From: Actinomycetes bacterium
Lineage (GTDB): Bacteria; Actinomycetota; Acidimicrobiia; Acidimicrobiales; JAMCPL01
Length of the DNA: 64,000 nucleotides
Direction of reading: 5' to 3'
NCBI GenBank assembly: GCA_021841005.1
Contig: JAKBVZ010000020.1
Location: 20,752-84,751, forward strand
Shown: positions 2,412 to 63,824 of the stretch, in pieces
Layout: every line of letters begins with the position of its first letter
How positions within the stretch are numbered: position 1 is the first letter of the stretch
Notes under the pieces: generated by a model
Databases searched by the model: none
Told to the model about the DNA's origin: nothing
What the model saw: the letters and a program-made list of their open reading frames with translations, nothing else
Program-made: the position numbers and the translations under genes

Positions 2412-5400
2412 TCAGTTCCCTACTCCGGAAAGGACTCCCTCGTCCTTACCATGCGTACCACCTCCGGACGGCGGTGAGTCCTCCTCCGTCCCGAGATATG
2501 ACGCCATCACTTCAGGGTTCTCTAGGACATCGGCAGTGCCGCCTTCAGCTATCACCTCACCTATATGCATACAGACAAGGCGATCAGAGATGGAAGCAAC
2601 CAGCGGAACGTCGTGTTCTATGACCAGAAATGCTGCCCCCGTCTCTTCCCTCAATCCGAGTATCAGCTCACCCAAAGCCTCTGACTCACGCTGCGCTATG
2701 CCTGAAGTCGGCTCGTCCAGCAACAGTACCTTCGGCTCATGTGCGAGGAGACAGGTGAACTCGAGAATACGGCGGGTGCCGGTTGAAAGCTCGCTGACAA
2801 AGTTGCCGCGAAAACGCTCCAAGCCCATATCCCTGAGCAAGCGCAGGGCCTTGACATATATTTCCGCCTCCGACTCCTTGGCGGCAGCAAGGCCTAGAGT
2901 ACATGCAATCGGATCTTTCACCGCCACGTGCTGCTCGCAGGCTGTCGCTATAGCATCGAGCACCGTCATGGCCGGGAAAAGCCTTGCGTCCTGGAATACC
3001 CTGCCAAGCCCTCTCGAAGCTCTCTGCGAGGGAGCTAGCGCGGTGATGTCTTCACCCGACATGAAGACCCTCCCCTGATCAGGCTTGAGAAATCCCGAAC
3101 AAACATCGAAAAGTGTCGTCTTACCCGCACCGTTGGTACCGATAATACCAACTATCTCGCCAGGACCCACCTGCACGCTCACGTCATGCAACGCAGCAAC
3201 TCCTCCATACTGCTTCGACACGCCTACAACTTCAAATGCCGGCATAGTGCTACAGTCACTGCCAGCTTTCTTCTCACTGGCTGCAATCCCACCCGAACCG
3301 ACAGCGCTCGCAATCATGCCGCCCGAAGCCATACCGCCCATCGCAATACCGGGCTGCGCGGGTGCTGCGCTGGATGTTACAGGCTGTATGCGACTCTGTG
3401 TGGGTTCCGGCTCGCGCGATTCCGTTGAATACTCACTGCTCATTGAAGCCGAGGCGAAGCCTTGCGTAGCGGTCCTGCCTACCCTGGCTTTCATGGCCGC
3501 AGAAATGAAAACCGAACGTAACAACGTGGGCTGCTGGGAAAGATCCGGCGTCGGACCGCTGAAACGTATCCTCCCTCTTTCCATGAAAACGGCCCGATTG
3601 GATATCGCCGTAGCGACATTGATCGACTGCTCCACGACCACGATGGTCACACCACTCTTGGCGAGATCAGTGACAACTTTGAGCAGGTCATTGACAACCG
3701 TAGGAGCAAGTCCCAGAGACAGCTCATCAATCATCAACAACTTCGGTTTGCAGAGCAGGGCCTGGCTGAGCGCAAGCATCTGCTGCTCCCCTCCGGAAAG
3801 CAATTCCGCCTTGTTGCGCAATCTGTTACGCAACTGGGGAAAGAGCTGAAGTACCCGGTCAGTGGCAGCTTCGACAAACGCCAACGCATCATCACTTTTG
3901 GAATGCTTCACCATCCATGCACCCATAGTGAGGTTCTCCTCTACACTTAGAGATGGAAATATACCTCTTCCTCCCAGCACAGCCACAAGTCCTGACCTCA
4001 CGCGATCAACAGCACTCTTATCCGTGATCTCTCGGCCTACAAAGGAAATCTTGCCTTCTCCAGGCTGCATCAGTCCTGCCAGAGTCCGCAAGGTGGTCGT
4101 CTTGCCGGCTCCGTTGGTACCCAGAAGGGCAAGCACCTCTCCCTGGGCAATACTGAAATTGACGTTGTAGAGTACCTGCGAACTGCCTATTGAGAGATCG
4201 ACATCACTAGCAGCCATTATCGGTACCCGACCTGTTGGAGGTCCTGCATAGGGTGCGGCCGGATGTGACTTGCCAGCATCCTGCTGGGCATCCATGGTAA
4301 CCTCCAGATCTTCCAGGGCGCCAAGGCGCAAGGCGGCAGAGCGCGCCATACTCCTATGGGCAGCCCCATCCCATCCCTGGTTACCATCATGGTCAACCAA
4401 GATACCCGCAAGGATCGCCTCCCCATCTACGTCAACCTTGGAAGCAATTGGTACAGATGGGGCAGGCGTGCCGTGCAGATCTCCGGTAATGCCCCGGCGT
4501 TTCACAAACGTAGCGAGTAAGCGGTCCCTGGCCGCAAAATAGAGCCACCCGAGCCCTTCAGGAGCTATCATCAGGATGACAAGCAACCCAACTCCCTGAG
4601 CCAGGTACTGCCATGCACCAGGCAAATGCCCCATCAGCTCGAAGAACACTGCCCCAAGCAGCCCCCCCGAAAGAGATCCAAGACCGCCCACCACAACCAC
4701 GGCAAAAATCATAACTGACTCGTTGGGATCGAAACCTGCATACCCTATGCCCTGGTTCTGAAGGACCAGCAAGGAACCAGCCAACCCAGCTATGGCCCCT
4801 GAGATGGCGAATACCATCAGCTTAGCGCGGAAGGAGCTAATGCCGTAAGCCGATGCCGCTCTGGCATTATCCCTCATGGCCACTACAGCCCTACCGGCTC
4901 TAGAATTACGAAAATTGGCAGCTAGGTATATCCCCACAACCAATACAAGAGCCGACAGCACGTACATCCAACGTTGCGAGTTCAGGTCGAAACGACCAAA
5001 AAGCACTGGCCTGGGCACGTTGGCAGGATTGAATAGCGGGAAGAAAGTGGAGGACAGCAGCCAGGTGGATGTCATCACTGCGAATGCCAGTGTAATGACT
5101 GCAAGGTACAACCCCGGAATGCGCAATGCCGGTATACCCATCACAACTGCCGCCACTGCGCCTACCAACGCTGATATCAGCATGGCAAGCAGGAGTTCGA
5201 CATGTAAATGGACGAGAAGCGCTCCCGTGGTAGCTGCGCCCACTCCCGCAATAGCGTACTGCCCAAGGCTGATCTGACCGCCCCATCCTGACAACATCAC
5301 CACCGATACGGCCAGCAAGCCATATATCGCAACAAAGGTAAACGTAGTCAACCATGTGGCGTTGAACGTCAAGGGGAGCACCACAAGCACCACCGCACCC

Positions 5401-6512
5401 AGAACGAAATATCCAATCTGGCGAGCAGCCCTGATCTCTTTCATACTTGCCAGTGCCGCCGGTATGGGGCGTATCTCGCGAAACGCTACATATCCCCCAA
5501 ATCCTGCGTCACTCGTTCGCTTCTGTTCGCGGCGCCTGAAAAGCAACGCTACAAGTATGAAGAAGAATGCAGCCACTCTTACATACGTGCTCTGGTGATA
5601 TGACCAGTAGACACCCTGATCCAGAACCCTTAACGCGATTGACCAAACCACTGCCATCGGCAATGAATCCATACCGGCCAGCACGGCTGCCGCCAGCGGA
5701 ATAAGCAATGATTCAGGGCCAGTAGCAACTCCCAGGCTTATGCCCTTTATCGGCGCAGTCAGTATGGCAGCTATCCCCGACAGTACTGTCGCCACCACCC
5801 AAACGATCATGGACAACCGCTTCACGGGTATACCGAGTAGGGTTGCACGCTCTTCGGAATCCGCGGAAGCTCGTATGGCTACGCCCGTATCGGTAGTTTG
5901 GAAGAACCAGTATAGCCCCAGCAGTGCAAGAGGGACAACAGCCAGAGCAATAAGATAATTACCGTTGAAAGTAATGGGGTTGATAGTGAACGACGCCGAG
6001 AACGGAGTAGTAAAAGTGGTCGTAGGAGAGATATTGTGAAACATATCCGGGAGTGCCACCTCGCCGGCCCCGAGTATCTGTGCTATGCCAATGGTAGCGA
6101 CCGTGAATATAAGTCTTGGAGTCTTGGAAAACCATTTGACCACGACCAAATCTATGAGCACTCCTACGACCACGGCCACCAAGAGACCTACAACAATCGC
6201 CACCCAGTAATTCCAGTGCTCGCCAACAACCGCAACAACCGCAACAGCCGCTGCCATGCCACCCATAGCACTCTGGGCAAAATTGAATATCCTAGTTGCT
6301 CGGTATATCAGTACCAGCCCCATCGCTGTCAGCGATGTGAGGCCACCCAGTACCACCCCCTGGAAAATCACTCCGGGAGGCAGGCCTGAAGGAAGCACCT
6401 GGCGCAAGATAAGATAGGCTACTGCGATCCCGAGCACCCAAACCCCGGCAAATACTGCTTTTCGCTGTCGCTGTTTCATCTGCGGAAAGATCAGAGAGGA
6501 TAGCTCCATCAC
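2412..6512 (-). CDS. Four-domain fused Liv-type ABC importer (LivH-like permease + LivM-like permease + two ATPase domains)
   Basis: Uninterrupted 1366-codon ORF. Two polytopic permease halves occupy about aa 1-330 and 340-690. Two nucleotide-binding domains follow, with Walker A GTNGAGKTTT and GTNGAGKTTL and signatures LSGGEQQ and LSTGTRR. The C-terminus ENPEVMASYLG is LivG-type. A Gly/Ala/Met-rich linker separates the ATPase domains. The ATG at 6509 is the likely true start (AAGGAG 7 nt upstream). Confidence 0.85.
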   Translation of the reverse strand: MMELSSLIFPQMKQRQRKAVFAGVWVLGIAVAYLILRQVLPSGLPPGVIFQGVVLGGLTSLTAMGLVLIYRATRIFNFAQSAMGGMAAAVAVVAVVGEHWNYWVAIVVGLLVAVVVGVLIDLVVVKWFSKTPRLIFTVATIGIAQILGAGEVALPDMFHNISPTTTFTTPFSASFTINPITFNGNYLIALAVVPLALLGLYWFFQTTDTGVAIRASADSEERATLLGIPVKRLSMIVWVVATVLSGIAAILTAPIKGISLGVATGPESLLIPLAAAVLAGMDSLPMAVVWSIALRVLDQGVYWSYHQSTYVRVAAFFFILVALLFRRREQKRTSDAGFGGYVAFREIRPIPAALASMKEIRAARQIGYFVLGAVVLVVLPLTFNATWLTTFTFVAIYGLLAVSVVMLSGWGGQISLGQYAIAGVGAATTGALLVHLHVELLLAMLISALVGAVAAVVMGIPALRIPGLYLAVITLAFAVMTSTWLLSSTFFPLFNPANVPRPVLFGRFDLNSQRWMYVLSALVLVVGIYLAANFRNSRAGRAVVAMRDNARAASAYGISSFRAKLMVFAISGAIAGLAGSLLVLQNQGIGYAGFDPNESVMIFAVVVVGGLGSLSGGLLGAVFFELMGHLPGAWQYLAQGVGLLVILMIAPEGLGWLYFAARDRLLATFVKRRGITGDLHGTPAPSVPIASKVDVDGEAILAGILVDHDGNQGWDGAAHRSMARSAALRLGALEDLEVTMDAQQDAGKSHPAAPYAGPPTGRVPIMAASDVDLSIGSSQVLYNVNFSIAQGEVLALLGTNGAGKTTTLRTLAGLMQPGEGKISFVGREITDKSAVDRVRSGLVAVLGGRGIFPSLSVEENLTMGAWMVKHSKSDDALAFVEAATDRVLQLFPQLRNRLRNKAELLSGGEQQMLALSQALLCKPKLLMIDELSLGLAPTVVNDLLKVVTDLAKSGVTIVVVEQSINVATAISNRAVFMERGRIRFSGPTPDLSQQPTLLRSVFISAAMKARVGRTATQGFASASMSSEYSTESREPEPTQSRIQPVTSSAAPAQPGIAMGGMASGGMIASAVGSGGIAASEKKAGSDCSTMPAFEVVGVSKQYGGVAALHDVSVQVGPGEIVGIIGTNGAGKTTLFDVCSGFLKPDQGRVFMSGEDITALAPSQRASRGLGRVFQDARLFPAMTVLDAIATACEQHVAVKDPIACTLGLAAAKESEAEIYVKALRLLRDMGLERFRGNFVSELSTGTRRILEFTCLLAHEPKVLLLDEPTSGIAQRESEALGELILGLREETGAAFLVIEHDVPLVASISDRLVCMHIGEVIAEGGTADVLENPEVMASYLGTEEDSPPSGGGTHGKDEGVLSGVGN

Positions 6513-6822
6513 ATACTCCTTATCACAATTAGGTCATTCCCGCCAGCCGGTACATACCCGCAACTCCGATCCCTACAACCCACCTCACTCGGCTTGTTCC
6601 GCATGTACGTGGAGTGCGACATACATAGCATGTTGCCTGCCACCGGCAAGCCGCGTGACCCTACTTTCTGACATAGTATCAGGTGTCTTGGCGATAGACA
6701 TTGAATAATATACAAAAACAGCTATCTCGTGAAAGACATTATCCAATCGTCTACCTAGTGCCTGAACCCTGGTATATGTTGCGCATTATACTCTACCGGA
6801 GCGCTCCACTAGTATTATTGAT

Positions 6823-8748
6823 ATGAAGTTCAAAACCTCTTCTCGAATGACCACCGGTACAACGCAACCCATGGCCAGATCTACGCGGGCCGATCGGCTG
6901 GCTGATCGTTCCCTGGAAGGGCTCTGCAGGGCAATCCTCCCGGTGCATGCTAACGAAGATAACGTTGCGGCCAACACGGCAACCCTGAAGCGATTCCTCG
7001 GCTACCAGCCGGCTTATGTGAACGTCGCAACTCGAATGGGCGCCGGTGCAGTGGATCTCTTGGCGAGAGCCGTATCCGGTAGATCCCTACAGAACGCCAC
7101 CGCCGACGATCAGGAACGGGTGATGTCACTGTTGACCCGGACCACGCTCGGAAGCAACGCGATGGAAGGCCTCAAAGCCCTTGTGCTGCTGGCTGCCGGA
7201 TCGGAAATGGCAACTGCCGAAATACTCGAAACCGCGCGCAATACCGACATCGTGAGACCAGACGCTGCCTTGGACGTAACGCCCTCGATATCCTGGCCTC
7301 AGGCCAGCCACTTCGACGCCGTCGTGATAGGGTCTGGCGCAGGTGGAGCTATGGCTGCAATGGAGTTGGCGGGCGCAGGCATGAGTGTCGCCATTATCGA
7401 GGAAGGACGGCGCTGGACCGTTGAAGAGTTCCGTACCATCCATCCCTTGGATCGTTTCGCAGGGCTGTACAGGGACGGGGGATCCACCATGGCGCTGGGA
7501 CAGCCTCCGATCGTACTCCCGATAGGACGGGCGGTAGGTGGAACGACGGTGGTCAACTCGGGAACATGCTACAAGACTCCCAAGGAAGTATTGCTCGACT
7601 GGCGCGATAAAGCAGGCTTCAGCCTTGCGGATCCGGACTCCCTAATGCCGGAACTGGACAGGGTGTGGGAGCTGATCCAGGTAGGTCCCGTTCCGCTTGA
7701 TGTAATGGGCATAAATGGAAAGATCGTTATATCCGGCGCGGAAAAATTGGGTTGGTCCACCGGTCCGTTGGACAGGAACGCTCCCGGATGCGGCGGCACC
7801 TGCCAGTGCGCCATAGGATGCCCGAAGAACGCCAAGTTCGGCGTACATCTGAATGCCCTTCCCAGAGCCTGTGCATCAGGAGCTCGGATCATCTCGGAAG
7901 CAAGAGCGTCCCGAATCATGGTGGAGAACGGGCACGCTACAGGTGTACTAGCGTACCGATCAGACGGATCCACCTTCAAGGTGCTCGCTCCTCGCGTAAT
8001 CGTAGCTGCAGGCACTACGATGAGTCCGTTACTGCTCAGGAGAAGTGGACTCGGAAAACACCACATGATTGGGAGGAACATGGCCATTCATCCCGCAGTA
8101 GGAGTGGCGGGTCGCTTCGAGGAGCCAGTGGTGGCATGGCATGGCGTTCTACAGAGTGCATATGTCGATCAGATCCATGCCGAACATGGAGTGCTGCTGG
8201 AAGCCACCTCCACTCCACCAGGCATGGGATCCATGATCCTGCCGGGCTTCGGAGGCAAGCTGGTAACCGAGCTGGAGCAAGCAGATCATCTGGGCGCTCT
8301 CGGCGGGATGGTGGCCGATTTGTCTGTTGGCAGGGTCATCGGAAGGAACCAGGCGACCATTATCTACAATCTCTCGAAACGAGATGGCAGGAGACTCCTG
8401 GAAGCCATACGGGGAGCCGGCAAGGTACTACTGGCCGCAGGCGCCATGGAAATCCTCACGGGCATTCCCGGTCAATCACCGGTACGATCCGAGCAGGATC
8501 TGGACGACGCTATTTCTCGCGCTGATCCAAAGTCATTGCACCTGGCGGCTTTTCATCCTGTCGGGACAGTTGCAGCAGGATCGGATCCCGGCAGGTTCCC
8601 AGTTGAACCGACTGGATCACTACGAGGCACGAGCGGTGTGTGGGTAGCCGATGGATCCCTGATGCCAACCTGCCCCGGAGTGAACCCGCAAGTTACCATC
8701 ATGGCGCTCTCGCTGGCGGTCGCAAAAAGCATTATCGATCAGCAGTAG
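6823..8748 (+). CDS. GMC-family FAD-dependent oxidoreductase with about 150-aa N-terminal extension
   Basis: Rossmann FAD motif VVIGSGAGGAMAAMELAGAGMSVAIIEEG. C-terminal GMC-like region GVWVADGSLMPTCPGVNPQVTIMALS. Confidence 0.75.
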   Translation: MKFKTSSRMTTGTTQPMARSTRADRLADRSLEGLCRAILPVHANEDNVAANTATLKRFLGYQPAYVNVATRMGAGAVDLLARAVSGRSLQNATADDQERVMSLLTRTTLGSNAMEGLKALVLLAAGSEMATAEILETARNTDIVRPDAALDVTPSISWPQASHFDAVVIGSGAGGAMAAMELAGAGMSVAIIEEGRRWTVEEFRTIHPLDRFAGLYRDGGSTMALGQPPIVLPIGRAVGGTTVVNSGTCYKTPKEVLLDWRDKAGFSLADPDSLMPELDRVWELIQVGPVPLDVMGINGKIVISGAEKLGWSTGPLDRNAPGCGGTCQCAIGCPKNAKFGVHLNALPRACASGARIISEARASRIMVENGHATGVLAYRSDGSTFKVLAPRVIVAAGTTMSPLLLRRSGLGKHHMIGRNMAIHPAVGVAGRFEEPVVAWHGVLQSAYVDQIHAEHGVLLEATSTPPGMGSMILPGFGGKLVTELEQADHLGALGGMVADLSVGRVIGRNQATIIYNLSKRDGRRLLEAIRGAGKVLLAAGAMEILTGIPGQSPVRSEQDLDDAISRADPKSLHLAAFHPVGTVAAGSDPGRFPVEPTGSLRGTSGVWVADGSLMPTCPGVNPQVTIMALSLAVAKSIIDQQ

Positions 8749-22486: not shown

Positions 22487-24839
<2,353 letters not shown>

Positions 24840-24915: not shown

Positions 24916-24942
24916 TTAGCACTCTAGTCTGTCGAGTGCTAA
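24916..24942. promoter_or_regulatory. CIRCE (HrcA operator) upstream of groEL
   Basis: Perfect consensus TTAGCACTC-N9-GAGTGCTAA, 100 nt upstream of the groEL start codon. Confidence 0.9.
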
Positions 24943-24949
24943 TAGCTAA

Positions 24950-25048
24950 TCACTTTCAGGATGATCGTGCAAGTACGCCTTCCGCTGCGGCCACTATGCC
25001 GCAGCCCGTGCATTACGGCTGTCACTTTCAGGATGATCGTGCAAGTAC
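24950..25048. repeat. MIRU-like element, locus A: 27-bp direct repeat flanking a 45-bp hairpin core (72-bp period)
   Basis: TCACTTTCAGGATGATCGTGCAAGTAC occurs at 24950-24976 and at 25022-25048. The core contains CTGCGGCCACTATGCCGCAG (7-bp stem, 6-nt loop). Confidence 0.9.
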
Positions 25049-29335: not shown

Positions 29336-29611
29336 TCAGCCGCCGGCGACAGCAGGAACGACCGAGAGGGTCTGCCCATCCGTGACAGGTGTGTCCAGGC
29401 CATCGAGAAAACGGACATCCTCATCGGCTAGGAACACATTGACAAACCTCCGCAGACTGCCGGACTCGTCAAACAATCTCTCACCGATACCTGGGTACTT
29501 GGCATCAAGTTCCCTCAGCGTGTCTCCGACAGTCGCTCCACTGATACTGACCTCACCCAGTCCATCGGTGAGTTCCCGTAGCTGCGATGGTATCCTTACT
29601 GTAACGCTCAT
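29336..29611 (-). CDS. MoaD/ThiS-family sulfur-carrier protein (MetO/CysO-like), C-terminal GG
   Basis: 91-aa beta-grasp-like protein ending in AVAGG. It lies downstream of the threonine-synthase-like gene. Start is the ATG at 29611, preceded by GAGGAG (ORF track extends to 29665 through the repeat). Confidence 0.75.
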   Translation of the reverse strand: MSVTVRIPSQLRELTDGLGEVSISGATVGDTLRELDAKYPGIGERLFDESGSLRRFVNVFLADEDVRFLDGLDTPVTDGQTLSVVPAVAGG

Positions 29612-29764
29612 CTTCTGTGCTCCTCTTCTAGGTCTGCTGCGGCCACTATGCCGCAACTCGTGCACCGTGTGTTGCTCATCTTCTGTGCTCCTCTTCTAGG
29701 TCTGCTGCGGCCACTATGCCGCAACTCGTGCACCGTGTGTCGCTCATCTTCTGTGCTCCTCTTC
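29606..29764. repeat. MIRU-like element, locus D: 2.3 tandem copies of a 68-bp unit between metM-like and metO-like genes
   Basis: The 23-bp junction GCTCATCTTCTGTGCTCCTCTTC is present at 29606, 29674 and 29742. It is the complement of SD plus ATGAGC. The copies are separated by two 45-bp cores containing CTGCGGCCACTATGCCGCAA. Minus-strand mini-ORFs lie at 29676..29747 and 29608..29679. Confidence 0.95.
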
Positions 29765-29806: not shown

Positions 29807-31051
29807 TCATACACCGGAAATGCGGCCGGCCATTGCCTCGGCAAAGGCATCCATCCTGGCTGCGATGGTAACTGTTGGGTGGACAGAGTCGGTTAGAGCC
29901 TCGACGGTCTTGAGACCGTGACCGGTCACGAAGATGACCACCTTCTCCTCCGGCTTGATCACCCCTTCCGACACCAGCTTGGCGAGTGAAGCCACGGTCA
30001 CTCCACCTGCCGTTTCAGCAAATATACCTTCCGTTCTCGCCAGTAGCTTGATACCTTCGATTATCTCGCCGTCCGTCACGCTGGCAAACGAGCCTCCCGT
30101 GGACCGGACCGTATCGAGAGCGTACCAGCCATCAGCAGGGTTCCCTATGGCGAGCGACTTAGCGATTGTATCGGGTTTTACAGGTCTTATGACATCCTTG
30201 CCTGCCCGGAACGCATCGGCTACCGGAGAACATCCAAGCGCCTGTGCGCCTGATATCCGAACCGCTGGTTCCTCGGCAAGCAGCCCCACGGTATACAGCT
30301 CCTTGAACCCCTTTGCGATCTTCGTCAGCTGGCTGCCGGAAGCCACAGGAACCACCACGTGATCGGGAGTGGTCCATCCCATCTGCTCCGCCACTTCGAA
30401 CGCCAGCGTCTTGGAACCTTCCGCGTAGTAGGGACGCAGGTTCACATTCACAAAGGCCCAATCGTCGTGCTCACTGGTCAACTCCGCACACAACCTGTTC
30501 ACGTCATCATAAGTCCCTTCCACCGCAACCAGATGTCCGCCATATACCGCAGTCGTAATCACCTTTGCGACCTCCAGGTCATGCGGTATGAACACCAGTG
30601 ACTCCACCCCTCCTCGGGCCGCGTGCGCCGCTACGGCATTGGCGAGATTCCCTGTAGATGCGCAAGCCACCACTTTGAAACCCAGCTCACGAGCTTTGGC
30701 GAGTGAGACAGATACCACCCTGTCCTTAAAAGAACCGGTAGGGTTGGCCGTATCGTTCTTTACCCAGAGCGATTGCAATCCCAACTCGGAGCCGAGCCTA
30801 CCTGCCCGCACAAGAGGAGTGAAACCGGTTCCCATGGACAGATCGTCATTTCCCAGCACCGGAAGGAGTAGTCCGTATCTCCAGATACTACGCGGGCCTG
30901 CCTCTATGGACTCCCGGCTGATCCCCTCCTTAATACAATCGTAGTCGTAGTCCACTTCGAGCGGCCCGAAACAAAAGTCGCATACATGCAGCGCCTCCGC
31001 GGGATAGAGCCGTCCGCACTCCCTGCACTTCAGACCATTTACGCAATTCAC
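29807..31051 (-). CDS. Threonine-synthase-family PLP enzyme with N-terminal Cys4 zinc ribbon (MetM-like candidate homocysteine synthase)
   Basis: PLP lysine motif TGSFKDR. N-terminal CRECG...CDFC. Start is GTG, 5 nt after GAGGAGG. A SAM riboswitch lies upstream and a sulfur-carrier gene downstream. Confidence 0.8.
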   Translation of the reverse strand: MNCVNGLKCRECGRLYPAEALHVCDFCFGPLEVDYDYDCIKEGISRESIEAGPRSIWRYGLLLPVLGNDDLSMGTGFTPLVRAGRLGSELGLQSLWVKNDTANPTGSFKDRVVSVSLAKARELGFKVVACASTGNLANAVAAHAARGGVESLVFIPHDLEVAKVITTAVYGGHLVAVEGTYDDVNRLCAELTSEHDDWAFVNVNLRPYYAEGSKTLAFEVAEQMGWTTPDHVVVPVASGSQLTKIAKGFKELYTVGLLAEEPAVRISGAQALGCSPVADAFRAGKDVIRPVKPDTIAKSLAIGNPADGWYALDTVRSTGGSFASVTDGEIIEGIKLLARTEGIFAETAGGVTVASLAKLVSEGVIKPEEKVVIFVTGHGLKTVEALTDSVHPTVTIAARMDAFAEAMAGRISGV

Positions 31052-31166
31052 AGCAACCTCCTCATCATCGGTCGGGCATTGGCACCTGGTCTACCTTCAT
31101 AAGACATCACAGGTTGCCGCGGCTTCACAGGGCCCGTCCCTCAGCCGCTCTGGATGATGACAGCTG
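31052..31166 (-). promoter_or_regulatory. SAM riboswitch of the SAM-I clan (S-box-like core, apparently no internal P4)
   Basis: The minus-strand RNA reads UCAUCAUCCAGAGCGGCUGAGGGACGGGCCCUGUGAAGCCGCGGCAACC...GGUGCCAAUGCCCGACCGAUGAUGAGGAGG. It matches the S-box conserved blocks (AGAG-GGC-GAGGGA-GGCCC-UGAA-CC-GCAACC...GGUGC-AA). The P1 3-prime strand runs into the Shine-Dalgarno sequence. Confidence 0.8.
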
Positions 31167-46005: not shown

Positions 46006-46244
46006 TAGAGGCTCAGCGGATAGGCATCTCGGGCTCGTCGTCCCCCTGGCTTCGCATCGCTGTGAAGTCGTGTATTGTCCATGCACGGAAGCTAGCCCTT
46101 CTGCCTCCACCTTGCACTACTCGCCCGGATGAACGCCTCCCTGATCTAAGCCGACAATCTACCAAGTCGCTACGGCCACTATGCCGTAGCCCGTGCGCTG
46201 GACCACGCCTCCCTGATCCAAGCTGCCTATCCGCTGAGCCTCTA
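46006..46244. repeat. 239-bp unit bounded by perfect 21-bp inverted repeats, containing MIRU-like locus B (19-bp direct repeat, 72-bp period)
   Basis: TAGAGGCTCAGCGGATAGGCA at 46006-46026 is the exact reverse complement of 46224-46244. Inside the unit, ACGCCTCCCTGATC[T/C]AAGC at 46133 and 46205 flanks a core with CTACGGCCACTATGCCGTAG. Confidence 0.85.
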
Positions 46245-46483
46245 GAGCATTGCGAACCTGATCCTATTGGAAAGAACCGAGCCAGGTGACCGTCGCAAAA
46301 GCGCGCCATCCTCGGTGAGTGCTATGCCGTGTATCCTCTCAAGAAGATCCAGGCACGTATCAAACCGCTAATAATCTCGGTACTTGACTCAGTTCCTTCC
46401 ATATACCCACAATCACATTATACTCCTGCCATCCCGTAATTACCACAAAAAATATGAAGGGCGTTGCGCTCCCCTTCGCTCAA

Positions 46484-48097: not shown

Positions 48098-48550
48098 CTA
48101 TTCCTCTGCCATGACCTCCAGCGTGACCTCAGAATCCACTCCCGGATAGAGATTCAATGTGACCACGTGGACACCCAGTGATTTTATGGGAGCAGCAATG
48201 TGGACTGACTTCCGGTCGACTTCCACGCCGGTTTGGATACGCACAGAATCGCTCACATCAGCAGCCGTAACAGACCCGAACAGACGTCCCTCGGGTCCTG
48301 CTTTGGCATAGACCTTGATAGTGGCTTCTTCCAAAATCGTCCTGATGGATTGAGCGGATTCCATGTCTCTGGCCTCTTTGAGATCCCGGGCACGGCGCAT
48401 GGCTTCAGCCTGTTTCGTCATTTTCTCCGTAGCGGCAAGTGCACTTCTCGAAGGCAAAAGCTTGTTACGAGCATAACCATCTGCAACTTCGACAATGTCG
48501 CCTTTCCTACCAAGATCATTGACATCCGTCCGTAGCAGCACCCTCATCAC
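48098..48550 (-). CDS. rplI: 50S ribosomal protein L9
   Basis: [32 protein letters not shown] is typical of L9. Its start overlaps the rpsR stop (GTGATG). Confidence 0.95.
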
Positions 48551-49239
48551 TGAATGTCTCCCCCGGTACCGCCCTCATCTTCCCTGTCACCGGAAGCCAC
48601 CGTACCACCCGGATCTGTAATGTCCGAGTCGGTCACGGCGCCCGCCGGAGCGCCCGGACCAGCTGGATCCGACCCGCCCGTCGGCACCTCTGAGCTACCT
48701 GAATCCAACGGGCCACCTGGAATCTCCGAGCCATCCGTACTCCCGGCAACATCCAGCCTTTCCGTAGAACCCCTACCGGTCTTGCCGGCACCACCTCCCC
48801 TGCTGGGATTATCCGTCCTGCCCCGTGGTCTTGCTCTGGACCCTTCGGAATCCCGTATCGGGCGGTCGGTATGATTCATGTGCTCACCCGTGACAGCTCT
48901 CTCGCCATCTCCTGGGAGGATATCACCCATATCCAGCGAGTAGGAAGACTGCCTGCGAGTTCCCGTTCTTTCAGCGCTAACGCGCTGGGCATATGGTAAC
49001 AATGCTACTTCACGCGCAGTCTTGACAGCTATGGCTATATCATGCTGATGCTGAGTGCAGTTACCCGTGACGCGCCTTGCCTTGATCTTGCCCCGCTCGC
49101 TAACATATCTCTTCAAGAAATCCACATCCTTGTAATCCACCCACTCTATATCATCAATACAGAGCAAGCAGGGCTTTTTTCTGTACTTACGCCCTGTGTC
49201 TTTCGTAACTTTGCGATTTTTCATACCATTTCTTCCCAT
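48547..49239 (-). CDS. rpsR: 30S ribosomal protein S18 with about 145-aa disordered C-terminal extension
   Basis: S18 core ([63 protein letters not shown]) is followed by a Gly/Asp/Ser/Pro-rich tail. I chose the start at the ATG at 49239 (GAGGAG 10 nt upstream), just after the ssb stop. Confidence 0.85.
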
Positions 49240-49240
49240 A

Positions 49241-49747
49241 TCAGAAAGGCTCCTCACTTTCATCGTAATGCACGGCACCCGGCTCGTCTTCCGCATAGTG
49301 CTTGGATGACGGTGCACCGTATGGACTACGACGAGAAAATCCTGGCGCAGGCGTACCGGTCTCCCCAGCCCCGCTTGCTTCCCTGCGCTCATTCTTTACA
49401 ATCTGTGCAGTAGCCCACCGCAAACTGGGACCCACTTCATCCGCCGTGATCTCGACCTTGTAACGATGCTCGCCGTCTGGAGTCTCCCAGGACCTTTGAT
49501 CAAGCCGACCCGTTACGATCACGCGAGTACCCTTTGACAATGACTCACTGGCATTTTCCGCCATCTCACGCCAGCATATCACATCAAAAAACGATACGTT
49601 CTCTTCCCAATCCTGTGTCTGCCGGTTCTGCCAGCGCCTGTTGACAGCCAACCCGAAAGCCGCTTTGGCAATCCCACTGGGGGTATAGCTCAGTTCCGGA
49701 TCTCTGGTCACATTACCAATCAATACAACCGTATTACCATTTGACAT
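49241..49747 (-). CDS. ssb: Single-stranded DNA-binding protein
   Basis: OB-fold N-terminus ([21 protein letters not shown]) and an acidic C-terminal tip (DESEEPF). Confidence 0.95.
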
Positions 49748-50366: not shown

Positions 50367-51182
50367 TCAATGATAAGACTCCTCGTCTGAAGGATACCTG
50401 CCCGCTCTGACATCCTCTGACCATGACGATACCGCTCTAATGGCATCGTCAGCCAGAGTTGCATACCTTCGCACAAACTTGGGTACCCTTTCGCTCAGAC
50501 CCAACAGATCGTGAAATACCAGTACCTGGCCATCACAGTCGGCACCCGCTCCGATCCCGATGGTCGGCACCGGAACGCTCGCAGTGACCTCGGCAGCAAC
50601 TGCCCGAGGCACCGCCTCCAGCACGATGGCAAAGCATCCCACTTCGGCCAAGCCAATCGCATCCTGAACCAGCATCTCGACAGCCAACGGATCTTTGGCC
50701 TGCACTCTATGGCCTCCCAGGCGATGTATGGACTGTGGCGTCAATCCGATATGTCCCATGACAGGAATCTCGGCGGCAACCAAGGCTTCAATCGCCGACC
50801 GCCTGATCCGCCCTCCCTCCAATTTGACCGCTCCAGCGCCGGCTCTGATGATAGCAGCGGCATTTCGTATCGTATCGGCATCACCAAGGTGATACGAGAG
50901 CCAGGGCATGTCCCCGACAACCAAGGCATTAGGCTTGACGCTACTGACAGCAGCCACATGGACAACCATATGCTCCACGGTCATATTCAAGGTGTCGCTC
51001 TGTCCATGCACCGTCATGGCGGCGCTGTCGCCGACAAGAATAATGTCGACACCTCCCGCATCAGCTATCCGAGCTCCAGGAGCGTCGTATGCCGTCAGCA
51101 CGACTATAGGGGCACTGCTTTTTGACCTCTTACGTACCTTGATGTCCGGAACGGTAACTTGTGGAGCCATAGCTATACCCAT
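50367..51182 (-). CDS. panB: 3-methyl-2-oxobutanoate hydroxymethyltransferase
   Basis: VLTAYDAPGARIADAGGVDIILVGDSAAMTVHG and KLEGG motifs. Confidence 0.93.
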   Translation of the reverse strand: MGIAMAPQVTVPDIKVRKRSKSSAPIVVLTAYDAPGARIADAGGVDIILVGDSAAMTVHGQSDTLNMTVEHMVVHVAAVSSVKPNALVVGDMPWLSYHLGDADTIRNAAAIIRAGAGAVKLEGGRIRRSAIEALVAAEIPVMGHIGLTPQSIHRLGGHRVQAKDPLAVEMLVQDAIGLAEVGCFAIVLEAVPRAVAAEVTASVPVPTIGIGAGADCDGQVLVFHDLLGLSERVPKFVRRYATLADDAIRAVSSWSEDVRAGRYPSDEESYH

Positions 51183-51277
51183 ATTAGCCTAATCAGGTGG
51201 TTCCACGGGCTGCGGCATAGTGGCCGCAGCGGATCTGGAGATAGCTATACCCATATTAGCCTAATCAGGTGGTTCCA
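51169..51277. repeat. MIRU-like element, locus C: 37-bp direct repeat flanking a 35-bp hairpin core (72-bp period) at the DUF5318/panB junction
   Basis: ATAGCTATACCCATATTAGCCTAATCAGGTGGTTCCA occurs at 51169-51205 and at 51241-51277. The core contains CTGCGGCATAGTGGCCGCAG. A minus-strand mini-ORF lies at 51189..51254. Confidence 0.95.
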
Positions 51278-51718
51278 GGCACAATCCGGGCACACTTCCA
51301 CCACGTAACAAGCCACTTGACGGCCATGGACACGCATTTTCAGCTTGGTGATCTCGCTGGAATCAGTCACACAGCGACCTCCTGACGGGAGGCCATTGCC
51401 AAATGCATATGTAACGTGGACCGTATGACCATCTTGGCAAATCGGACAACTTTCTGCAGATGGCCTACCTACATTGCGTGCGGCCCTCAGCAGCTCGGGG
51501 TGGGCATCGCAGATATCCCTCTTGGAAACGCGACCCTTACGGAACTGAGCGATGAGCGACTCGCGAATCACTCCATACTCGACACCAGCCATCAGCTCTC
51601 CCGAAGGGTTCGGCTTTAAGCGACGAGAGGGCTGCATGCTCGCGCCACTCGATCTATTCCCGTTAAGGATATCCGAGGACACATCTCCAACGTCTCCACC
51701 AATATCTCCACCAGTCAT
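51245..51718 (-). CDS. DUF5318-like conserved actinobacterial protein (Cys-rich)
   Basis: Conserved-looking core (RKGRVSKRDICDAHPELLRAARNVGRPSAESCPICQ...VVEVCPDCAWNHL). It sits in the typical position divergent from padR-ino1. Its last 11 codons lie inside repeat copy 2. Confidence 0.65.
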   Translation of the reverse strand: MTGGDIGGDVGDVSSDILNGNRSSGASMQPSRRLKPNPSGELMAGVEYGVIRESLIAQFRKGRVSKRDICDAHPELLRAARNVGRPSAESCPICQDGHTVHVTYAFGNGLPSGGRCVTDSSEITKLKMRVHGRQVACYVVEVCPDCAWNHLIRLIWV

Positions 51719-51786
51719 GCCCTACAGGCTAATCGCTTATGAGATGTGAAGCACAACATGGCTTTCGACGTTCTCGATTTGCATTA

Positions 51787-51804
51787 GTGTCGATATATCG
51801 ATAC
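51787..51804. promoter_or_regulatory. Candidate PadR operator (18-bp near-perfect palindrome)
   Basis: GTGTCGATATATCGATAC contains the perfect 12-bp core TCGATATATCGA. It lies 10 nt upstream of the padR ATG in the divergent intergenic region. Confidence 0.4.
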
Positions 51805-51814
51805 AATATATCTA

Positions 51815-52501
51815 ATGCTTGAAATTGCACTTCTTGGAGTCCTCTCAGATGCTGACCTTCACGGTTACGAGATACGAAAACGTCTCAAGGAAGAGGGTCT
51901 CATCATGAATCTCTCGTTCGGAACCCTGTATCCTGCCTTGGCTCGCCTCGAGCGCTCCGGAGCAATAGAGTCATACCTTCAAGCCCCTACATCGGCCAAG
52001 CGTACGCGGACTCCGCTTACAGGATCCCTGACGGGGGAGAGAGCGGTGGCTGGATCACTGATGCACCAGCCCGTCAAGTCCACCCGGAACAAGAAAGTGT
52101 ACCGGCTGACTCCCGCCGGACAGGTACTCTTCAGAGAACTACTTGATTCTGACAGTTCAAATGGTGCTGATCGTCGCTCATTCGATATACGGTTGGCTTT
52201 CGCGCGATACCTCCCACCTTCCGCAAGACTCAAACTTCTCGAACGCAGGCGTGCGCGGATCATGGAAGACCTGGAACAGGCCAGATTGGTCTCGCAGGAA
52301 ACCCGCAAGCAAACCAAGAAATACGGAAACGCCCTGATCGAGCACAATATCGAGTCCATGGAACGTGATATGGCCTGGCTCAACAAGTTGATCACGGCGG
52401 AAATCGCATCTCGTGATGACACGACTAAGAGGTCGGTTGCAACGCGCACCACCAAAGCTCACTTACCTACAGAGATAATAAGTCCAGGCTCAGAGATCTA
52501 G
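51815..52501 (+). CDS. PadR-family transcriptional regulator
   Basis: The N-terminal winged helix (LLGVLSDADLHGYEIRKRLKEEG...FGTLYPALARLERSG) is typical of PadR. Located upstream of ino1, as in mycobacteria. Confidence 0.85.
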   Translation: MLEIALLGVLSDADLHGYEIRKRLKEEGLIMNLSFGTLYPALARLERSGAIESYLQAPTSAKRTRTPLTGSLTGERAVAGSLMHQPVKSTRNKKVYRLTPAGQVLFRELLDSDSSNGADRRSFDIRLAFARYLPPSARLKLLERRRARIMEDLEQARLVSQETRKQTKKYGNALIEHNIESMERDMAWLNKLITAEIASRDDTTKRSVATRTTKAHLPTEIISPGSEI

Positions 52502-62738: not shown

Positions 62739-63824
62739 CTAGTCTACCATGACCTTGTATATTCTCTCAAGGTCCTCTATCGTATAAAACTCGATAATGA
62801 GTTTACCTTTCTTCCCTCCGAGATCCACATGTACCCTGGTATTGAGATAATCAGCCAACAACGTCTCCAACTCCAATATCCCTGGAGCTTTCGATACATG
62901 CTCATCTGGACCATTTCCGAGTTTATCTGTTTCACGCCGTAATGTCTTTGCCCGCTGTGCCGCAGAGAACAAATCCTCCGGAAGATCAGAGTGCCTGCTG
63001 TCTCTACCAGCACTATCTTCGCTATCATCGATTTGAGTGTGGCTGGCATAATTATTGGAGTCATCGTGGTCTGCTCTGTGTGACATTGCCTCACCTTCAT
63101 CAAGTGAATGAGACAAGCTGGAATCTGCATCCTGGCGATTATCGCCGTCTATCTGGTGTTGTACCAGCTGTTTGATAATGTCTTCAACCATTCTAACGGT
63201 AAGGTTTTCGGAAACAATGCGCTGTGCAATCTCTTCCTGCATAACTCTATCTGGAGTTGCCAGTAGCGCTCGCGCGTGCCCAGCACTAATACTGTTATCT
63301 GCAAGTACCTTCTGAACTGTGGCCGGAAGTTGTAATAGTCTTAGCGTGTTAGATATTGCGGAACGACTTTTTCCTACTCGCCGGGCCACCTGATCATGTG
63401 TATATCCGAAGTCATCAATAAGCTGCTGATAGGCCGCCGCTTCTTCCAGCGAGTTGAGATCCTCTCTGTGTAGGTTCTCAATAAGAGCTTTCTCCAGGCT
63501 GCCGCTCTCGTCCGTCTCATGCACAATCACCGTGATTGTCTGCAGTCCCGCTCGCCTAGCTGCACGCCACCGTCGTTCGCCGGCAATGATTTCGTATTCT
63601 TTCGCTCCAACCTGTCTGACTAAGATCGGCTGCAGCAATCCCACCTCTCTAATCGAACCAGCAAGTGAGGCCATTTTCTCTTCGTTAAAAACCATCCTTG
63701 GTTGTAACTGATTAGGTCTCACGTCTCCAATTGGAACTTCTCTGAGCTTGTCATCTCCATAGTTGACGGATTCAGCTGGTATCAAGGCACCCAGCCCTCT
63801 CCCAAGTCCACTACGCCTCGCCAT
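62739..63824 (-). CDS. parB: Chromosome partitioning protein ParB
   Basis: GLGRGLGALIP, ParB box LIENLHREDLN, HTH region, and a long Asp/Ser-rich linker before the C-terminal dimerisation segment. Confidence 0.93.
   Translation of the reverse strand: MARRSGLGRGLGALIPAESVNYGDDKLREVPIGDVRPNQLQPRMVFNEEKMASLAGSIREVGLLQPILVRQVGAKEYEIIAGERRWRAARRAGLQTITVIVHETDESGSLEKALIENLHREDLNSLEEAAAYQQLIDDFGYTHDQVARRVGKSRSAISNTLRLLQLPATVQKVLADNSISAGHARALLATPDRVMQEEIAQRIVSENLTVRMVEDIIKQLVQHQIDGDNRQDADSSLSHSLDEGEAMSHRADHDDSNNYASHTQIDDSEDSAGRDSRHSDLPEDLFSAAQRAKTLRRETDKLGNGPDEHVSKAPGILELETLLADYLNTRVHVDLGGKKGKLIIEFYTIEDLERIYKVMVD

Follow-up and report, generated by a model that had tools for sequence, protein, structure and literature searches.

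The window analysed here is a 64-kb stretch (64,000 nt) of contig JAKBVZ010000020.1 from an uncultured Actinomycetota genome (GCA_021841005.1) whose closest DUF5318 matches are in Acidimicrobiales, and it carries a short repeat element (copy D below) exactly at the junction between a DUF5318 gene and panB. Both genes are on the reverse strand: the DUF5318 gene (51245-51718; 157 aa; Pfam PF17249; also called as a gene in L007) ends with ...NHLIRLIWV and a stop codon, and panB (50367-51182; Pfam PF02548, Pantoate_transf), which encodes ketopantoate hydroxymethyltransferase, starts with MGIAMAP and has a product of 271 aa in the window and in the sister metagenome-assembled genome (MAG) GCA_023379675.1. 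At their junction the same 37-nt sequence, ATAGCTATACCCATATTAGCCTAATCAGGTGGTTCCA on the forward strand, is found at 51169-51205 and again at 51241-51277; the two copies are 100% identical, with a spacing of 72 nt (two matches in the window, against 0.00 expected from window shuffles). The 35 nt separating them (51206-51240) contain, on the reverse strand, the hairpin GCTGCGGC-CACTAT-GCCGCAGC, with an 8-bp GC-rich stem (arms at 51223-51230 and 51209-51216) and a 6-nt loop (51217-51222); as RNA, copy D has a folding energy of -16.6 kcal/mol (z = -4.35). The junction on the reverse strand reads TGGAACCACCTGATTAGGCTAATATGGGTATAGCTAT / CTCCAGATCCGCTGCGGCCACTATGCCGCAGCCCG / TGGAACCACCTGATTAGGCTAATATGGGTATAGCTAT / GGCTCC...

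Each of the three blocks has its own relation to the neighbouring genes. The upstream repeat copy (51241-51277, reverse strand), an exact repeat of a segment that is single in relatives, rebuilds the 3' end of the DUF5318 gene, with its final codons and TAG, and also holds a duplicated ATG of the panB type (51254-51252). The inserted core (51206-51240, reverse strand; CTCCAGATCC-GCTGCGGC-CACTAT-GCCGCAGC-CCG) is absent from relatives, recurs at other sites and forms the RNA hairpin. The downstream repeat copy (51169-51205, reverse strand) is contiguous with panB and rebuilds its 5' end: it holds the ATG at 51182, the 23 nt of native sequence that precede this ATG, and the initial two bases of a second ATG (51170); the panB start may be either the first or this conserved second ATG, both of which the duplication rebuilds. 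Shine-Dalgarno-like sequence is weak in both 37-nt copies.

The two genes are bridged by a mini open reading frame (mini-ORF) of 21 codons (51189-51254, reverse strand; MGIAISRSAAATMPQPVEPPD), which runs through the hairpin. Its ATG (51254-51252) and the DUF5318 TAG (51247-51245) form a 10-nt overlap, ATGGGTATAG; its own TAG (51191-51189) is followed by GCTAAT and then by the panB ATG at 51182, a gap of 6 nt in the same frame. A preliminary description of this DNA had given the same gene ends and mini-ORF, and its coordinates and translations agree with the ORF list; the 37-bp duplication in which it placed both the stop codon and the panB ATG is an exact repeat, and the genes on its two sides are confirmed by Pfam.

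The uninterrupted junction in relatives

We compared the junction with its counterparts in relatives. A DUF5318 homologue with 88% identity is found in the sister MAG and in several read-set assemblies, and a second one in GCA_027365435.1 (87% identity over the aligned part); at the DNA level the sister lineage is ~90% identical to the window, and the GCA_027365435.1 lineage ~78%. All of these relatives (five assemblies of the sister lineage, among them GCA_023379675.1 and three more assemblies of it, and the more distant GCA_027365435.1) have a single copy of the 37-nt segment, in the context ...TGGAATCACCTGATCAGGCTGGTATGGGCATAGCTATGGCTCC..., with the DUF5318 stop and the panB ATG overlapping by 10 nt: for example, the gene calls in L009 place DUF5318 at 6001-6462 and panB at 6453-7268. 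The overlap is uninterrupted, and reads ATGGGCATAG in the sister lineage and ATGTATGTAA in GCA_027365435.1. In the alignment, every relative shows one 72-column gap, corresponding to the first 37-nt copy plus the 35-nt core, and the window is longer by exactly 72 nt. The duplication without the core (that is, both 37-nt copies but no hairpin) was found in no relative compared.

Because there is a single 72-column gap in every relative, the ancestral state was evidently a 10-nt stop/start overlap, as the preliminary description had supposed when it proposed that the whole junction was duplicated, and the window lineage gained the 35 new nucleotides and the second 37-nt target copy in one event. 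A two-step history is unlikely, since a core arriving first would destroy the panB start, and a repeat arising first would need the core to land exactly between its copies. The insertion is recent, because the repeats are still identical at 37/37 positions and the orthologous 12.4 kb of the sister MAG contains no copy of the hairpin core; by this comparison, copy D postdates the split from the ~90%-identical sister lineage. The mini-ORF's closing TAG is specific to the window lineage (CAG is found there in both relatives) and originated in a synonymous ATC-to-ATT change in DUF5318; without that TAG, the upstream ATG would run directly into the panB frame.

We also considered an assembly artefact and set it aside: independent ENA assemblies agree with the window at copy D (L007), and independent NCBI assemblies do so at the sites of copies A and B, described below.

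A family of hairpin-core repeats

The hairpin core belongs to a small, previously undescribed repeat family, which is non-autonomous and restricted, as far as visible, to one uncultured Actinomycetota lineage. Its 22-nt hairpin occurs five times in the window against 0.06 expected (at 24984, 29636, 29704, and 46169 on the forward strand, and at 51209 on the reverse strand), and with a covariance model the five reach 54-60 bits, against 12 bits or less for everything else in the window. We identified eight sites: A, B, C, and D in the window; H (in L018), ~9 kb past the right end of the window in the same organism, so that five sites are within ~74 kb of one organism; and three in the sister MAG, namely E (in L003), F, and G (both in L005). 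The aligned copies have a 32-nt consensus in common, TCC-GCTGCGGC-CACTAT-GCCGCAGC-CCGTGCA. Compensatory double changes are seen at two stem pairs, one each in copies C and F, a covariation that was reached by 6 of 500 shuffles; because these stem changes are compensated, the hairpin has been maintained, either in source copies or in place.

Searches outside this lineage gave little. In an exact 19-mer scan of 185,579 species genomes (one per species), the sister MAG alone had the element, the remaining matches being chance hits without the CCGTGCA tail; the 19-mer scan of metagenomes gave one match, also by chance, and viral contigs gave none. A search of a protein database for in-frame copies, with SAAATMPQPV as a padded 42-column profile, returned 88 word candidates, none with E <= 10. 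Rfam covariance models gave no match at E <= 5 at copy D, and chance-level matches alone at copy B. There is no terminator-like site in 50900-51900 that would suggest an intrinsic terminator, and the hairpin is followed by CCGTGCA, not by a T run. The element is too small for any gene of its own; of the ORFs scanned in the window, none has a transposase, reverse transcriptase, or Cas domain, and none is a gene for a transposase associated with repetitive extragenic palindromic (REP) sequences (RAYT; Y1 HUH).

At seven of the eight sites the core is flanked by a duplication of local sequence (15-37 nt), giving units of 68-72 nt. The duplication is exact at D (37 nt) and at A (27 nt), both with a period of 72; it is 27 nt with 4 mismatches at C, and 27 nt with 2 mismatches at E, where there is an older degenerate unit 72 nt upstream (period 72 at both sites). 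Copy B has an exact duplication of 23-24 nt in three copies (period 68), copy F an exact one of 15 nt that is longer when mismatches are included (period 71), and copy H an exact one of 22 nt, or ~38 nt with an internal diverged patch (period 71). The period is far steadier across copies than the duplication length; the clean young copies form two classes, 37+35 nt (duplication plus insert) and 27+45 nt, about one helical turn apart. Only 32 nt are common between loci, and the outer ends of the insert are not conserved.

Gene boundaries and copy-number variation at the other sites

Copy B has an outcome similar to that of copy D at a gene start. It is located at 29605-29764 (forward strand) between a thrC-like gene (29807-31051, reverse strand) and thiS (29336-29611, reverse strand), and consists of 2.4 tandem 68-nt units, antisense to the neighbouring genes, with cores at 29633-29664 and 29701-29732. 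On the gene strand its duplicated block, GAAGAGGAGCACAGAAGATGAGC, is the Shine-Dalgarno site and start codon of thiS, present three times. The two spare starts open 23-codon ORFs with the sequence MS(D/N)TRCTSCGIVAAADLEEEHRR (29676-29747 and 29608-29679, reverse strand), and these are chained: each TGA overlaps the next ATG (as ATGA), and the last one overlaps the thiS ATG. The 68-nt period equals 72 minus this 4-nt overlap. The thrC-like gene is itself behind a SAM (S-adenosylmethionine) riboswitch (31062-31160, reverse strand; 72 bits), which heads the operon of the thrC-like gene, the mini-ORFs, and thiS, and this arrangement suggests that SAM controls a cysteine or methionine route of the sulfur-carrier (CysO) type.

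Copy number varies at this locus. Looking up the exact ThiS protein in ten assemblies, we found a thrC-thiS spacer of 195 nt (two units) in three and of 127 nt (one unit) in five; in two contigs from metagenomes the break falls within the copy B repeat. Two units are present in six sequences (the window, L016, L017, L021, L023, and L024), and there are two kinds of one-unit allele: each corresponds to a different one of the two unit variants, and one kind is on a background with several other substitutions. Because assemblies of the same organism have either one or two units, locus B behaves as a variable-number tandem repeat. At copy D, the exact 37-nt repeats would likewise make precise loss of the 72-nt unit possible, and such a loss, by slippage or recombination and by the same route as at B, is plausible.

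Two of the sister-MAG copies are also associated with genes. Copy F duplicates the start of a 609-aa transporter gene, and opens a 24-codon ORF (MTPTTDDESAAATMLQPVRWDGYP) that ends in an ATGA overlap. Copy E is an in-frame insert of 24 codons in the N-terminal part of a 668-aa ORF (...IPSAAATMPQPVQRQ...); the older degenerate hairpin unit, exactly 72 nt upstream of it (L003 3556-3605) in the same ORF, reads ...GSMPQPGAS..., and therefore in-frame units can persist and decay within a gene. A genuine start codon is within the duplication at three of seven sites; start-codon targeting cannot be shown from these, since selection on survivors would look similar. Units are 68 or 71 nt long where the start is of the ATGA type and 72 nt at the other sites, which is consistent with a frame filter.

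Copy A (24950-25048, forward strand; 27-nt repeats at 24950-24976 and 25022-25048, a 45-nt insert, core at 24981-25012) is in the divergent intergenic region between groEL and a BNR-TIG gene. A perfect CIRCE operator, TTAGCACTC-N9-GAGTGCTAA, is found at 24916-24942 upstream of groEL (23190-24815, reverse strand); copy A begins 8 nt from this operator, and its duplication preserves the operator-adjacent native sequence. An empty site for A and B was sought through the sister orthologue of the 1333-aa neighbour (P0122), but that gene is in another context there (yajC-secDF/ruvB), with no orthologous intergenic region.

Copy C (46133-46231, forward strand; 27-nt repeats with 4 mismatches, core at 46166-46197) has the compensated stem variant GCTACGGC/GCCGTAGC. 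For this copy the spacer to be compared, between dnaB and a peptidase gene, is rearranged between the lineages, and the comparison exposed a 235-bp element that contains copy C (46008-46242, between dnaB and the D-Ala-D-Ala carboxypeptidase gene), bounded by terminal inverted repeats of 19 bp that match perfectly (GAGGCTCAGCGGATAGGCA), with TA on each side. This element is seemingly absent from the orthologous spacer of the sister MAG, which is rearranged and does not align cleanly; it looks like a MITE (a miniature transposable element with inverted repeats) that carried along an older hairpin unit.

A proposed relay of translational coupling

Taken together, we consider it probable that a hairpin-core repeat inserted into the 10-nt overlap of DUF5318 and panB, duplicating 37 nt of the target, and that the mini-ORF may relay translational coupling between the two genes. 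The structural part of this reading is the firmer one: the comparison of sequences shows an insertion with a 37-nt target duplication, by which both genes were regenerated and the mini-ORF created in the ancestral overlap geometry, with equivalents elsewhere in the family. A trans-acting enzyme would cleave the two strands ~37 nt apart, and gap filling would leave a ~72-nt unit of 35 nt of element and 37 nt of duplicated target. Both genes stay intact because the upstream stop, the downstream ATG, and the sequence upstream of that ATG are all contained in the duplicated block. Ribosomes finishing DUF5318 would then re-initiate at the spare ATG in the original overlap geometry, melt the -16.6 kcal/mol hairpin, terminate near panB, and re-initiate there, so that coupling would be relayed, not broken.

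Coupling is most efficient at short stop-start spacing, structure just past the stop correlates negatively with it, and a short ORF may serve solely for ribosome delivery (PMC12548453). The weak Shine-Dalgarno-like sequence before panB in all lineages suggests that panB may depend on coupling, and it is plausible, as the preliminary description had proposed, that coupling is preserved across the insertion. The most fitting view of the mini-ORF itself is that the long duplication produced it incidentally and selection tolerates it; it is not best regarded as a gene for a functional peptide.

The closest competitor to the relay keeps the same structure but makes the mini-ORF silent: translation of panB would use the ribosome-binding region regenerated in front of it, and neither the hairpin nor the mini-ORF would affect expression. 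We consider this a real possibility, if a somewhat doubtful one. It is consistent with the downstream copy, which retains all of the native sequence from -23 to the ATG; with the location of copies A, C, and G, where coupling is not at stake; with the translated peptides, which differ (SAAATMPQPV in D, E, and F, compared to CTSCGIVAAAD in B); and with the number of duplications that contain a start codon, which shows no clear excess over selection alone. An ancestral 10-nt overlap with a weak Shine-Dalgarno-like motif is, however, typical of coupled pairs, and at each of the three sites with a start codon the mini-ORF stops between -4 and +6 nt from the true start, with unit lengths of 68, 71, and 72 that fit the frame needed. 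Between these two uses of the mini-ORF, relay and silence, we would infer about an even balance.

Several points weigh against the relay reading as a whole. panB retains its 23 nt of native upstream sequence and could initiate independently, and, with its weak Shine-Dalgarno-like sequence, translation of the mini-ORF may be poor. No flanking repeat is detectable at copy G (L005 1562-1593), and the linkers between core and duplication vary among copies, even young ones, which a simple cut-and-paste element does not predict. No candidate mobilising enzyme is found among the window ORFs scanned, and the insertion chemistry is deduced from the product alone: staggered cleavage with gap repair is favoured, with a ruler-type integrase, or template switching onto an existing copy, as alternatives. 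Finally, the family-level comparison is based on eight sites only.

How the repeat was inserted

If the relay reading is correct in its structural part, the enzyme responsible may still be of more than one kind. One suggestion is mobilisation in trans by a DDE transposase that makes long and variable duplications, as for the insertion sequences IS1549 and IS1634, in which case the hairpin would correspond to the two terminal inverted repeats, fused together, of a minimal MITE. IS1549 (from Mycobacterium smegmatis, an actinobacterium) and IS1634 are flanked by direct repeats of 8-514 bp, for which there is no mechanistic model (PMC2266710), and the duplications here are also long and variable, 15-37 nt. 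We nevertheless regard this source as unlikely: the arms are just 8 bp, the outer insert ends are not conserved, no such transposase was seen in the window, and a near-constant 72-nt period has not been reported for those insertion sequences.

Still less likely, in our view, is an integrase with a ruler like that of adaptation in CRISPR systems, for example an off-target Cas1-Cas2, which would insert a short duplex and duplicate a repeat-length target, producing units similar to repeat-spacer-repeat. Off-target spacer integration in E. coli does duplicate a repeat-length target segment; the duplication-insert-duplication layout (37+35 nt at D, 27+45 nt at A, C, and E) and the near-constant period of ~72 nt, with duplication lengths about one helical turn apart, are what such a ruler would give. 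But the same insert sequence is found again at every site, whereas spacers are diverse; the two units of copy B are identical; the window shows neither a CRISPR array nor a cas gene; and the core has no match among viral contigs.

A local replication error without any mobile element (template switching, or slippage with filler DNA) could yield a one-off partial tandem duplication, namely a short direct duplication with an intervening segment, and the units of copy B do expand and contract, but a one-off error cannot explain why a single 32-nt core recurs at eight sites in two species and has compensated stem changes, and we consider this account very improbable. Template switching onto an existing copy is possible as a copying route, but the extended junction homology it calls for was not significant: when linkers were compared with the native flanks as inexact copies of them (alignment anchored, copies permuted), p was 0.15 and 0.07, a likeness by eye only, and unanchored alignments of linkers and flanks were at shuffle level.

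The product as a whole might instead point to an integration mechanism that is new for bacterial small repeats, a proposal we put forward only tentatively and think rather doubtful: a helical-phase-constrained unit of ~72 bp would combine an insert of 35 or 45 bp with a duplication of 37 or 27 bp, land harmlessly on starts, stops, and promoters because so much of the target is copied, leave relay mini-ORFs behind, and be lost precisely.

Other features of the window

The right end of the window contains parB (62739-63824), and parA, gidB, yidC, rnpA, dnaA, and dnaN are found within the next 10 kb (L018 1-10000), the locus that also contains copy H. These genes therefore place the chromosomal origin ~5-6 kb past the window, with the whole window on one replichore. 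The hairpin strand relative to fork direction is the same at four of five sites, a number too small for interpretation.

Downstream of dnaB there is a non-coding block (46262-46452), close to the 235-bp element, that is 94.8% identical to the sister MAG, compared to 89-93% for the flanking genes, and that no Rfam family matches at E <= 1; a small RNA or a regulatory region may be located there. The gene for ribosomal protein S18 (48547-49392, reverse strand) was called at 230 aa, far above the usual S18 length, with a C-terminal extension of ~150 aa, Gly-, Asp-, and Pro-rich and seemingly of low complexity. At 2412-6512 (reverse strand) there is a single ORF of 1366 aa with two branched-chain amino-acid permease domains and two ABC ATPase domains, which could represent either a fusion transporter of the LivHMGF type or several consecutive genes with no stop codons between them.

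Significance and comparison with known repeat systems

A long target duplication can render an insertion exactly on a stop/start overlap harmless; here the empty site is in hand, and the gene ends and the overlap geometry are seen to be rebuilt. For duplications of 15-37 nt whose period stays close to 72 nt, no mechanism has been worked out. The variation in copy number at the thiS locus could mark strains of this organism in metagenomes.

Among small repeats, MIRUs (interspersed repetitive units of mycobacteria) are the nearest in behaviour. As described in two sources (Supply et al., 1997, via PMC12548453 and PMC3184786), MIRUs are actinobacterial, are dispersed between operon genes singly or in tandem, and vary in copy number among strains; those texts describe units of 40-100 bp with tetranucleotide direct repeats and ORFs that overlap their neighbours (PMC3184786), inserted at start codons, with an internal ORF coupled at a spacing of -4 and little effect on expression (PMC12548453). 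The family described here has units of 68-72 nt, dispersed, with one or two at locus B, and internal ORFs that end in ATGA overlaps at B and F or, at D, start in a 10-nt overlap and end 6 nt before panB. It does not have a conserved whole unit or a tetranucleotide repeat: 32 nt are shared, and the duplications are 15-37 nt. The rest of each unit, in contrast to MIRUs as those sources present them, is duplicated local sequence, and the host is not a Mycobacterium; the comparison is one of descriptions. MIRU-type behaviour (start-codon insertion, coupled mini-ORFs, and variable tandem units) is thus extended to a distant uncultured actinobacterial lineage, and its occurrence with an unrelated hairpin-core element suggests convergent evolution.

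Other palindromic repeats share different parts of the picture. Like REP sequences and their inverted doublets (REPINs), this family is a short GC-rich hairpin in many copies, mostly extragenic, with a stem kept by compensatory change; all copies here are single or in direct tandem, with no inverted doublets. REPs have not been reported with long target duplications, and this core is also found in frame inside coding sequence. Rickettsia palindromic elements (RPEs) are about 100-150 bp and are not known for target duplications of 20-40 nt. RPEs are likewise palindromic, and, in an account that cites them (PMC3184786), can occur in frame within genes and add a peptide, comparable to the 24 codons of copy E, although their host phylum is unrelated.

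IS1549 and IS1634 (PMC2266710) also leave long direct repeats of variable length where they insert, one of them in an actinobacterium, but they are autonomous elements of 1.5-2 kb with a transposase gene, whereas the insert here is 35-45 nt. The same insert length sets the family apart from MITEs, which have terminal inverted repeats, a core of 100-400 bp, and duplications of 2-10 bp; the sole inverted repeat here is the 8-bp stem. Spacer integration by Cas1-Cas2 also gives a short insert flanked by a duplicated stretch of ~27-37 nt and a unit of ~70 nt, but relative to a CRISPR array the arrangement is reversed, with a conserved insert and local flanks, and no cas genes or leader are seen in the window. 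The family of copy D thus combines MIRU-like behaviour with a REP-like hairpin, and is unusual in its long target duplication.

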